Assembly (NCBI GenBank): GCA_046563655.1 | Contig: CM102286.1 | Span: forward strand, 4,526,001 to 4,590,000 | From: Yuukianura sp. NJ FZ-2021 | Lineage: Eukaryota | Reading direction: 5' to 3' | DNA: 64,000 bases | Shown here: one piece after another, positions 54,682 to 60,323 of the stretch | Position numbering within the stretch: position 1 is the stretch's first letter | Layout: each line of letters opens with the position of its first letter | Position numbers and translations under genes: made by a program | The notes under the pieces: generated by a model | The model's input: only the letters and a program-made list of their open reading frames with translations | What the model was told of the DNA's origin: nothing | Database searches by the model: none

Positions 54682-56695
<2,014 letters not shown>

Positions 56696-56873
56696 AACAT
56701 AAAAACAGTGAAGAGTGTAGCCAGAAATAAAGTTGAGTAAAATAAATTGATCTCACTTTCGACTAAATTATCATAGAAGACAGGAAGATTGACTGGAAAA
56801 TCAACAAATTTTTATTTATAGTCCCAAACAACTAAATTTTTAGCTACAACGGCGGCAGAAGTCCACGTAAGAT

Positions 56874-57689
56874 TTACAGTTTGGTCTTCTCGTCTTGTTC
56901 AGACTCTGTAGACTCTGGATCGGGCGTGTCTTGATGAGCGTTGTCAATTTCGGGCAAACTGGAAACACGAAACACGATTTCAAACTCAGATCATCTCAAC
57001 AAAAGTTTTCTTTGTCTAAATTAGTTGACTTACGCATGAACTTCTGCCTCTGCTTGCTTTGCAACTTTCGATTGACTGTTAAAGTAATCTTTTCTGGCTT
57101 CTTCCAATAAAACATTGTGTATCAAATTCGGATTTGCTCTGGTATTGACCGGACCGGGAAGTGGTGGATAAGGGTTCCCTCGTAGCTCAAGGACGGCTCG
57201 CTCGTACCTTTCATAGGTTCCATCTAGTGTTATTGAATCAAAGTAAACAAGTTAATTAAGTGAATCAGAGACAATGATTGATAAAATTTCCCTAAAAATA
57301 GCAATACCGAGGTTAGCAGAGGACGGAGCTCGAAGCATTCTAGTGAACGGGACCCCGGCAGGCCAAGATTCATATCTTGGTGCTAAAACTTTGAACAATT
57401 TTGGAACCAACGTTTTGTCTTCCAGCCAGAAGTCGGCTAATTTCATTGTTGGCTGGTGTGTATCACCATATCGAAGGGCTTCCGATATGAGTCTTTCAGC
57501 GTATGGTCTCGCCTCATCTGCACGGTGATAATTCAGTTCGATTCTCTCATGACGTACCAGAGCAGTAACTGTTTTGCGCATAAATTTAAGCCGTCCAAAT
57601 AACCCTTCTACATTCCTGAACCTCCTGTGCTTTGGAAGCACCTTCAACGGCAGTGCCGATACAAGGTGCGCCAGTCGTGATTGATTCAT
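56874..57689 (-). CDS. mRpL17: Mitochondrial ribosomal protein L17
   Basis: RKTVTALVRHERIELNYHRADEAR.YAERLI, LVPKLFKVLAPRY, AVLELRGNPYPPL, LIHNVLLEEARKDY. Confidence 0.95.
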
Positions 57690-57775
57690 CTTATAGAATG
57701 TTCGTCGATTCACTTGGCTTGCAGTGATTGGATTTGATTATAGGCAGATGAATTATTCTCACGCACTGAATGAAA

Positions 57776-58085
57776 TCAATCTTTAGTGTTCGGATTTGAA
57801 TCTTTAGCAAGCTCTGGATATCTAGCACGAAACAGCTCAGCCGCAATTCTTTCGTTCTTGTAACGGCGAGATTGCCTTGAGAAAATAAGATTTATGTAGG
57901 AATTGAATATTTCACACTTGAAAATTGAAATGTTCGCATTTAAACTGAAATAAAAGTTTTTTTTCTTACGCCAGCCAATATCTACCGGTCTGGTAGTAGA
58001 AAACTCCACAAGCAACGGCAGCAGCGATACCCAGAACAAGAGGTATTCGTTTTATTCTGTTCCTCCTCACTTCTTCAGGCGTCAT
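57776..58085 (-). CDS. Orphan 71-aa single-TM microprotein (2 exons)
   Basis: MTPEEVRRNRIKRIPLVLGIAAAVACGVFYYQTGRYWLA|QSRRYKNERIAAELFRARYPELAKDSNPNTKD*; GTAAG donor and pyrimidine-rich acceptor splice in frame. Confidence 0.65.
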
Positions 58086-58102
58086 TGATAACTCATAAGC
58101 GT

Positions 58103-58330
58103 TTACTCCTCTCCCGCACCTCCCTCCGTAGACGCAAACTCCAGGGTCGTGTTGGAAGAAGGTTCGAATTGAAAGGATTCAGTTACAGAATCAGACTCAG
58201 ATGACACAATTTTCTTGTTTTTAGAAGCTTGCTGAAAGATCGGTTTCCAGATGTAGTAGCCAGCGGCAACGCCAACGACAGTAACGGCAACGATATCTAA
58301 AGTTCTTAGTCCCCTTCGACGAATTTTCAT
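58103..58330 (-). CDS. PIGBOS1-like mitochondrial membrane microprotein
   Basis: MKIRRRGLRTLDIVAVTVVGVAAGYYIWKPIFQQ matches the PIGBOS1 pattern (RRL...LGIAGGVYIFQPVFEQ) from memory. Confidence 0.7.
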   Translation of the reverse strand: MKIRRRGLRTLDIVAVTVVGVAAGYYIWKPIFQQASKNKKIVSSESDSVTESFQFEPSSNTTLEFASTEGGAGEE

Positions 58331-59463
58331 AACTGAAAGGACGAGGCTGAGTTGCAGTTTCATTCTACAGTCCAAGGTGGTTGGTGGTTGGTGGAAGGAC
58401 GAAAACAGTGCAGAATATTACATATTTGTGTGGGGACGTGCTGAGATAATAAATAGAAATACTCTTACCAACTCTCCACGAGGAAGGCGACAAATCCGGG
58501 GGCGAAGACCGATAACTAATCCGTCAAAATTGGCAAACTCCTGTTGAAAAGAAATCATATGATTCATAAATTCCACTTCCTCTCTGAACTCCCTTAGCCT
58601 TCACCCTTCCCGTTCCCATTAACCTTTCAAAACTCAATTACAACATGCAAAGTGATATTGGCTGGCTTACCGGGTCAGTAGCTATCTCGTTGTCGGTTGA
58701 CAGATCTTAATTAACTGTAAATCAAGAAACATTAATTGCAAAGACACAAGCAATTAATGATTAAAAGCCGAAAATGTGAATCTAGTTTTTTATGTTGATC
58801 AGCTGACTAGAGTAACGCATACCCACACATCACCGTTATCATCATAGCGGCATGGATGGACATTCCCGTTCCGGAATGATGTTCCCAATACATTATGTAC
58901 TTTAATCCTGTAATTATTCATGTAATTTTGTGGAAACACAAATGAGCGACCAGTATATTTGCAGTAATTGTGTAGTGAAAATTTAATCATTTCAATTCCA
59001 GAGATATACTAGTAATTAACATCTAATAATTAATATAAACTAATGCAATTCAATAATCTCAATATGATGTCTAACCGCCGGCGGGAATATTCTCATCATT
59101 GATATTCAAATTCCATTTGTTGTGTTTATGTTTTGTGAATTGTGAAATTGTTACTGATTGATTGTGGTTTGTCTTTGTTTTGTGGATTACCTTACCGCTA
59201 TAGATTTACATAGTAGGCACGTAATAAATTATAAATTACATAGATACATATTATTAAATAATATTATAAATAATAAAATAATTGGGGTGTTTAATTTAGC
59301 TGTTTTCGAACCTAACCTGTCAAATCGATCAATTATAGCTGCTTGACACTTGCCCCAATCTAGCCCCTAGTGGCTGGCTATTCATCAAGAAATCGGACCG
59401 GAGGGACACTGACACTACAGTAACTACATATTTACATCTGAAGACGGGACAACGTTAACGAAC

Positions 59464-60323
59464 ATGGGAAGCGATGACGAAGTCGGGTATGATAGGGGCT
59501 TATTTGGTGATGATGACGGAGACGGTGCTTCCATAATAGCTTCAGATGACGATACGGATATTCGTCGTCGCAGTGCTGGGGACACTCAGTCGAAGGGGTC
59601 AGACAAAGGGTCAGGAGATGAAGACAATGAAAAAAAGAACGAAGAAAAAGGTGAAAATAAAATCCGACCTTTGAAGCTTAGATGCTATTTTATAATACGT
59701 ATTATTCCTCATTCACATTGATATGCTCGTTTTTCAGATACTAAGAAACCATTAGCAGCTAAACGAAAAGGTCCCGTTAGGCATGTGTTACTGGATGAAG
59801 ACACGTACGGAACTTTTTCGTTAATTTCAATTTATATATGATCAGCAAGGGGGAACACTTGCTAATTTTGTTGTCACATCACAATAGACTTTGCGGAAGA
59901 AACGGATTGATCAAAATTGAAGAAGTATTCAAGGACTTCAAATTCCTTGGAAAGGGGCATGAGCAGCAAGATCTGGACCGGGTTTTGCATAAACTGGAAC
60001 ATTGGGTTCACGTATTGCATCCGAGGTATCCGTTTGATCAGACACTGGAACGTATTGAGTACCTTGGAGCCAAGAAGCCCAGAGTGAAAACATACGTGAA
60101 GAAAATCCGAATGGGACTAATTTCTTCTACTGAGAAAGAAGATGACTTTCTGAATTTAGTCAACGACTTGAGCAGTGACGATAACGCTGACGTTATTGGA
60201 GAGGCACCTCAAGGCCAACAAACTTCTGAACCTACTGCTGGCCTGGAACCAGAGTTTGACGATCAATTTCCGGATGACTTCCCCGATATCCCTGAAGAAA
60301 TGTTGCTGGATGACAACTTTTGA
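59464..60323 (+). CDS. Tipin: TIMELESS-interacting protein (Swi3/Csm3 family)
   Basis: Acidic N-terminus; KFLGKGHEQQDLDRVLHKLEHWVHVLHPRYPFDQTLERIEYLG.KK..VKTYVKKIRMG. Confidence 0.92.

Follow-up and report, generated by a model that had tools for sequence, protein, structure and literature searches.

The minus strand of a 64,000-nucleotide (nt) stretch of Yuukianura sp. NJ FZ-2021 (contig CM102286.1, positions 4,526,001 to 4,590,000; hereafter the window, the coordinates used being those of this stretch) carries a candidate tricistronic unit in which three closely spaced open reading frames (ORFs) encode a PIGBOS1-like microprotein (ORF1), a second microprotein of 71 amino acids (aa; ORF2) and the mitochondrial ribosomal protein bL17m (mRpL17, here L17). 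An earlier note on this DNA had described the three ORFs as lying on one strand with only 17 and 86 nt between them, and on re-reading the minus strand all of its coordinates hold. The features of the locus are the following:

58330..58103, minus strand: ORF1, PIGBOS1-like single-pass membrane microprotein of 75 aa (coordinates include the stop)
58102..58086, minus strand: gap 1, 17 nt, following the ORF1 TAA
58096..58082, minus strand: mini-ORF of 4 codons in gap 1, its TGA (58084..58082) overlapping the ORF2 ATG (58085..58083)
58085..57970, minus strand: ORF2 part 1, with the start, basic N-terminus and transmembrane helix (codons 1–38 plus 2 bases)
57969..57876, minus strand: ORF2 intron, 94 nt, GTAAGA...AAG, phase 2
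57875..57776, minus strand: ORF2 part 2, with the charged C-terminal half, a conserved RYPEL-containing motif and the stop (ORF2 total 71 aa)
57775..57690, minus strand: gap 2, 86 nt, without ATG, AATAAA or ATTAAA, and with TCAGT at 57769..57765
57689..57308, 57223..57034 and 56958..56874, minus strand: exons of the L17 (bL17m) gene, 218 aa, with introns of 84 and 75 nt
56811..56816, minus strand: AATAAA 58 nt past the L17 stop, which is likely to serve the unit as poly(A) signal
58333..58468, minus strand: possible intron in the 5' untranslated region (UTR), a weak candidate inferred from its GTAAGA donor at 58468 and a pyrimidine tract plus CAG ending 2 nt before the ORF1 ATG

The ORF2 intron has a lower GC content (23%) than the coding parts on either side of it (48% and 43%), and the L17 introns are similar to it at 26% and 33%. 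Between 56700 and 58600 the minus strand holds just two poly(A)-type words, both AATAAA (at 58056 in ORF2 part 1 and at 56816), and no occurrence of ATTAAA. Both gaps are free of either word, in keeping with the earlier claim of AATAAA-free gaps, which had not mentioned the AATAAA inside ORF2 part 1. The mini-ORF with its ATGA overlap, also described before, can be read directly from the sequence.

A recurrent trio of coding sequences

Scanning metagenome contigs with L17 exon 1 identified two related loci, designated L001 and L002. The first (2353 nt) contains the full trio in the same order and on the same strand, namely a 67-aa PIGBOS1-like ORF, a 5-nt gap, a 65-aa ORF2 split by a 103-nt intron, a 29-nt gap and L17, the exon 1 of which is 84% identical to that of the window. 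The second begins within ORF2 part 2, with the ORF2 stop located 33 nt before the L17 ATG, and its L17 exon 1 is 80% identical. Judged by this sequence comparison, the recurrence of the trio in L001, and of part of it in L002, argues that the arrangement is more than chance.

The third ORF had been taken for mRpL17, and this assignment is confirmed by a match of its first exon to Pfam PF01196 (Ribosomal_L17) at 67.3 bits (cut-off 27) and by 57–65% identity of this exon to named bL17m proteins of mosquitoes, bugs, moths, beetles and locusts. The closest matches of exon 1 are environmental contigs at 80–85% identity, and 256 of the 290 homologue candidates fall at E ≤ 1e-10. These matches place the organism among insect-like arthropods without a close annotated species in the database. 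The MNQ N-terminus aligns with that of all five named insect proteins in the alignment, and position 57689 is therefore the true L17 start. At residues ~107–113 an insertion of two residues and a WPxGxP(Y/F)TRMLRAP motif are common to the L17 proteins of the window, L001 and L002 and to three unnamed proteins from the database, and both are absent from the five named insect bL17m in the alignment. The insertion and motif mark a distinct arthropod lineage.

ORF1 matches Pfam PF23670 (PIGBOS1-like) at 40.2 bits, above the curated cut-off of 27, over residues 20–51 of an 86-aa reading, as expected from its earlier description as PIGBOS1-like, and its orthologue in L001 matches the same family at 40.8 bits. 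Of 66 aligned residues the two proteins share 26, and the N-terminus and the helix are almost the same in both. Mean hydropathy over 19 aa is highest (1.58) for the segment starting at residue 10 of the 75 aa; a single hydrophobic helix close to a basic N-terminus is common to ORF1 and ORF2. The 86-aa reading begins at an in-frame ATG at 58363 (minus strand), which has a good context (A at -3) and would add 11 hydrophobic residues. We rejected it as the ORF1 start on the grounds that it has no in-frame counterpart in L001 and that the proteins align from the ATG at 58330; it is probably intronic or located upstream of the point where transcription begins. A word-indexed protein search with ORF1 returned three candidates, none at E ≤ 0.01, and the database searched is thus evidently without small proteins of this lineage. 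Human PIGBOS1 and CG34210, its Drosophila melanogaster orthologue (PMC13240139), belong to the same Pfam family as ORF1, and the fly protein is of similar size (74 aa vs 75 aa; PMC13240139, PMC10199267). Location at the mitochondrial outer membrane and a role in endoplasmic reticulum stress signalling are known for human PIGBOS1 only, as listed in review tables, and the pertinent passages of these reviews give no linkage to mRpL17 or to a second small ORF (smORF) (PMC13240139, PMC10199267).

ORF2 is a real coding sequence under selection. Several lines of comparative evidence lead to this conclusion: residue identity, the place and phase of the intron, indels in multiples of three, the in-frame substitution pattern and synonymous changes in the RYPEL motif. 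The ORF2 proteins of the window and L001 agree at 32 of 65 aligned residues (49%), and BLASTP of part 1 against L001 743–844 gives 14 of 20 identical residues (E 2e-9); the best hydropathy window of part 1 has a mean of 1.86. That ORF2 has an intron of its own, as proposed earlier, is borne out by the 103-nt intron of L001, which occupies the same alignment position in the same phase (phase 2). The coding parts of the window and L001 measure 116 vs 101 nt and 100 vs 97 nt, differences of 15 and 3 that are both multiples of 3. The ratio of nonsynonymous to synonymous differences per site (pN/pS) is 0.66 in the ORF2 frame (bootstrap 95% interval 0.45–0.95), compared with 0.86 and 1.23 in the shifted frames. 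In the three-species alignment of part 2, 10 of 32 columns are invariant, among them the RYPEL motif, the codons of which differ between species at synonymous third positions. The conservation of ORF2 in relatives, a question raised by the earlier note, is thereby answered for the whole frame and its intron in L001 and for part 2 in L002.

No named family could be assigned to ORF2. Its two exon-encoded pieces were searched separately, which limits sensitivity. Part 1 with six upstream codons gave no candidate in a word-indexed search of proteins of 24–79 aa, and part 1 gave no match at E ≤ 0.001 in a phmmer search of 1.84 billion representatives and no usable match in the Atlas. Part 2 found unnamed Atlas clusters only (0.91–0.92), with a recognition value of 1929, below the 2300 reached by 91 of 100 known-family proteins. 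Pfam (E ≤ 10) returned nothing for four of five ORF2 pieces; the fifth, from L002, hit SpoU_methylas_C at 14.5 bits (cut-off 25), which was taken as chance. Profile searches of the PDB with ORF2 pieces gave best E-values of 1.3 and 2. These blanks say little, because pieces only were searched and because the same databases returned no relative of ORF1. We also considered ORF2 as a tandem paralogue of PIGBOS1 and rejected this, since part 1 of neither the window nor L001 has a Pfam match (E ≤ 10) and hhalign gave a probability of only 0.83% when the two ORF1 sequences were compared with the two of ORF2 part 1. A complex prediction for ORF1 with ORF2 part 1 scored 0.02 and weighs neither way. 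On the available alignments, ORF2 is best described as a conserved, previously unnamed microprotein of no known family, and its neighbour genes, as the basis for any placement, would put it at the mitochondrial membrane.

Depletion of ATG codons and the start contexts

ATG codons were counted in the spliced RNA, beginning with the ORF1 ATG and stopping just short of that of L17, and the counts were compared with dinucleotide-preserving shuffles. In the window this span of 547 nt contains three ATGs (those of ORF1, the mini-ORF and ORF2) vs 10.2 ± 2.3 expected (5000 shuffles, P(≤3) = 0.0012), while the 436-nt span of L001 contains two, both of them cistron starts, vs 6.45 ± 1.92 expected (P = 0.012). 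When the 64 trinucleotides are ranked by their depletion in the span, ATG comes second in the window and L001 alike. Three or fewer ATGs were found in none of 90 segments of 547 nt within long ORFs of the 64-kb window, and in 1.6% (minus strand) and 3.3% (plus strand) of all its segments of this length. Divided into segments, the window has no ATG from ORF2 to L17 (6.8 expected; reached by 0 of 4000 shuffles) and L001 has none in its ORF1 segment (3.4 expected; P = 0.007). The sequences around this ATG desert are of a different kind: ATGs occur at normal density just upstream of it (58363 and 58423 in the window; six in L001 330–531), the ORF2 introns hold one in the window and four in L001, and L17 exon 1 holds nine and eight, respectively.

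The base at -3 is G at ORF1 (2/2 species), T or C at ORF2 (2/2; T in the window) and A at L17 (3/3); the step from ORF2 to L17 is of the kind that leaky scanning would call for, and ORF1 has a purine. As far as can be read from sequence, leaky scanning through all three ORFs agrees with the ATG desert and with these contexts taken as a graded set. Neither re-initiation nor an internal ribosome entry site would need such a desert. The earlier note had proposed one mRNA read by either leaky scanning or re-initiation, and of these the former agrees with the desert, the start contexts and the kept layout. Re-initiation through the mini-ORF finds no such agreement, as L001 gap 1 is 5 nt long and has no ATG, and hence neither a mini-ORF nor an ATGA overlap; the overlap is not a conserved feature. 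The desert and the start contexts extend to all three ORFs and not just to the first two, which had been suggested as the stronger case.

Proposed leaky scanning and its alternatives

We posit that the trio is probably a conserved nuclear transcription unit, with a tricistronic mRNA from which three proteins would be made by leaky scanning. One mRNA would carry the PIGBOS1-like microprotein, the 71-aa single-pass membrane microprotein ORF2 and bL17m. Ribosomes would scan from the cap and some would start at ORF1 (G at -3); those passing ORF1 would meet the ORF2 ATG in a poor context (pyrimidine at -3), and most of the remainder would reach the L17 ATG (A at -3), the ~0.5 kb between offering no further ATG save the non-conserved 4-codon mini-ORF of the window. 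Both the single mRNA and the translation of all three ORFs are what we infer from these sequence features.

Several observations weigh against this model. The purine at -3 of ORF1 means that this is not a clearly weak start. By segment, the shortage of ATGs is not significant alone in the ORF1 part of the window (1 observed, 2.8 expected; P = 0.16) and is marginal from ORF2 to L17 in L001 (0 observed, 2.3 expected; P = 0.065) and in the 126 nt of L002 (0 observed, 1.8 expected; P = 0.085). The comparison consists of two environmental contigs related to each other and to the window, such that the two ATG tests are not independent, and relatives of ORF2 outside these three sequences were not found in searches with pieces only. 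Poly(A)-type hexamers occur inside the unit at non-homologous places (window 58051–58056; L001 1039–1044, over the ORF2 stop; L002 66–71, 22 nt before the ORF2 stop). We read these as chance, and they could end shorter isoforms.

The most serious alternative, which we consider possible yet rather unlikely, is a mixed unit in which ORF1 and ORF2 are dicistronic and L17 is made mainly from an mRNA of its own with the L17 ATG first, produced either by a start in the AT-rich ORF2 intron or part 2 or by splicing that skips the exon with ORF1 and ORF2 part 1. The stretch comprising ORF2 part 2 and gap 2 is free of ATG in all three species and would suit the plain 5'UTR of such an mRNA equally well, but the absence of ATGs from ORF1 and ORF2 part 1 of L001 (0 vs 3.4 expected, P = 0.007) would then be left unexplained. 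A TCAGT word in gap 2 of the window, put forward earlier as allowing a separate mRpL17 start, is present as described, but the gaps before L17 measure only 29 and 33 nt in the relatives. The L001 gap contains neither TCAGT nor any AG, so a separate start within gap 2 is not conserved, and any separate L17 start would have to lie inside ORF2. FlyBase reports that at most polycistronic loci alternative promoters or splicing also give rise to monocistronic isoforms (PMC4528330), which lends the mixed unit some general plausibility.

The skipping variant turns on the 5' end of the unit. The ORF1 ATG of the window and that of L001 are each preceded, at a distance of 2 nt, by the end of a pyrimidine tract plus AG (window 58333–58350, L001 512–533) in DNA that cannot otherwise be aligned, and a GTAAGA donor lies upstream of ORF1 (136 nt in the window, 202 nt in L001). 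This combination suggests a 5'UTR intron, maybe with a conserved 3' splice site, and such an intron would allow an isoform spliced onto the ORF2 intron acceptor, skipping the exon with ORF1 and ORF2 part 1 and giving an L17-only mRNA. The putative intron is, however, not intron-like in the window, where its GC content is 43% rather than AT-rich, and transcription may alternatively start within ~30 nt of the ORF1 ATG. When the sequence ahead of ORF1 in the window was aligned with that in L001, no convincing conserved block emerged by which to position a promoter or a 5' exon. Use of the GTAAGA donor at position 330 of L001 would generate an upstream ORF (uORF) of 2 codons, the stop of which overlaps the ORF1 ATG.

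A spliced leader trans-spliced operon was rejected, as L001 gap 1 is only 5 nt and L001 gap 2 holds no AG, leaving no 3' splice acceptors. We regard it as very unlikely that ORF2 is a cis-acting conserved-peptide uORF, its translation or nascent peptide tuning L17 and the peptide having no function of its own. ORF2 does lie immediately upstream of L17 in 3/3 species and its peptide is conserved, but this conservation sits in the helix and in a motif 10–20 residues before the stop; only one of the eight final columns is invariant past the likewise invariant K24 of part 2, and conservation is thus not highest next to the stop. Stalling peptides that act at termination are unlike ORF2 in this respect, its C-terminal end being weakly conserved. 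The length of 65–71 aa, the hydrophobic helix and the conserved intron of its own instead look like those of a membrane protein. That ORF2 is a chance frame in a long L17 5'UTR or ORF1 3'UTR, with a meaningless layout, can practically be dismissed despite the lack of a family or homologue in any library searched, given that L001 retains the start, the stop and the place and phase of the intron, with indels in multiples of three, that pN/pS is lowest in the ORF2 frame with an interval below 1, and that RYPEL is kept through synonymous changes in three species.

Two neighbouring genes flank the unit on the opposite strand. Upstream and divergent from it, at 59799–60320 (plus strand), lies a Swi3/Tipin-type replication-fork-protection gene (PF07962, 77.9 bits), and the ~1.5 kb separating this gene from ORF1 may be a shared promoter region. 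Downstream, the 3' end of L17 faces a convergent homeobox gene, the last exon of which lies at 56330–56527 (plus strand; Homeodomain, 43.3 bits) and has its stop ~290 nt from the L17 AATAAA at 56816.

Relation to known polycistronic loci and significance

Scanning to downstream cistrons is known to require an upstream cistron that is free of AUG and a weak context followed by a strong one. In Drosophila, the stoned and Snapin dicistronic mRNAs were reportedly described by Wall et al. in 2005 (J Biol Chem 280:27670), the second cistron depending on a first one without AUG codons. Such an AUG-free first cistron resembles the ATG desert described here, with the differences that the genes are not the same and that there are two cistrons rather than three.

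The closest likeness is to Drosophila sloth1-sloth2 (orthologues of SMIM4/UQCC5 and Brawnin/UQCC6), in which the gap is 5 nt, the upstream Kozak context is weak and leaky scanning was demonstrated with reporters (PMC9681215). Both cases involve two single-pass membrane microproteins of ~60–80 aa on one strand in a mitochondrial context, separated by a tiny gap (5 nt there, 5 nt in L001, 17 nt in the window), with a poorer start context ahead of a better one, which here applies to ORF2 and L17. They differ in that the present unit has three cistrons, the last being a normal-sized ribosomal protein with introns, and in that ORF2 has an intron and is not detectably a paralogue of ORF1 (hhalign, 0.83%).

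FlyBase, as summarised in PMC4528330, holds 159 dicistronic pairs, seven tricistronic and two tetracistronic loci, in which small ORFs are over-represented and many of which also have monocistronic isoforms. One of them, mRpL53-CG33155, has 8 nt from stop to start (PMC4528330, File S1) and likewise represents a mitochondrial ribosomal protein gene sharing an mRNA with an unrelated small gene; mRpL53 is there polycistronic-only, whilst for CG33155 an alternative promoter additionally yields a 3' monocistronic transcript (PMC4528330). Neither mRpL17 nor CG34210 appears in the 12 supplementary files of that paper that were searched, including the FlyBase polycistronic list (File S1), one file not being covered. 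In D. melanogaster CG34210 (within 59B1-59C4) and mRpL17 (61B3) are unlinked and on different chromosome arms, and the linkage reported here is therefore lineage-specific or was lost in Drosophila. Conserved nuclear polycistronic mRNAs read by leaky scanning are also described for green algae, a distant lineage, and involve unrelated genes in the accounts given (PMC11892635, PMC7896298). A full-text literature search for PIGBOS1 with '-cistronic' words found, judged by title and abstract, nothing on this arrangement.

The unit would belong among the insect polycistronic smORF mRNAs, and ORF2 adds a conserved microprotein to the small set of animal smORFs with comparative support. The unit also offers a compact natural case of an animal nuclear gene with three cistrons for which leaky scanning apparently suffices. 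The desert, bounded exactly by the first and last cistron starts, provides together with the tight layout a sequence-only signature for screening unannotated arthropod genomes. A more far-reaching reading of the sequence, and one that we hold to be very doubtful, is that the ATG-free 0.5-kb leader is a stoichiometry device fixing the ratio of the two microproteins to bL17m, with ORF2 working alongside the PIGBOS1-like protein at mitochondrial membranes in mitoribosome biogenesis or docking; if true, this would give the PIGBOS1-like proteins of this arthropod lineage a part in mitochondrial translation. If the three ORFs are indeed co-translated, the unit would connect the mitochondrial ribosome with a PIGBOS1-like protein and a new membrane microprotein in a way that can be tested.

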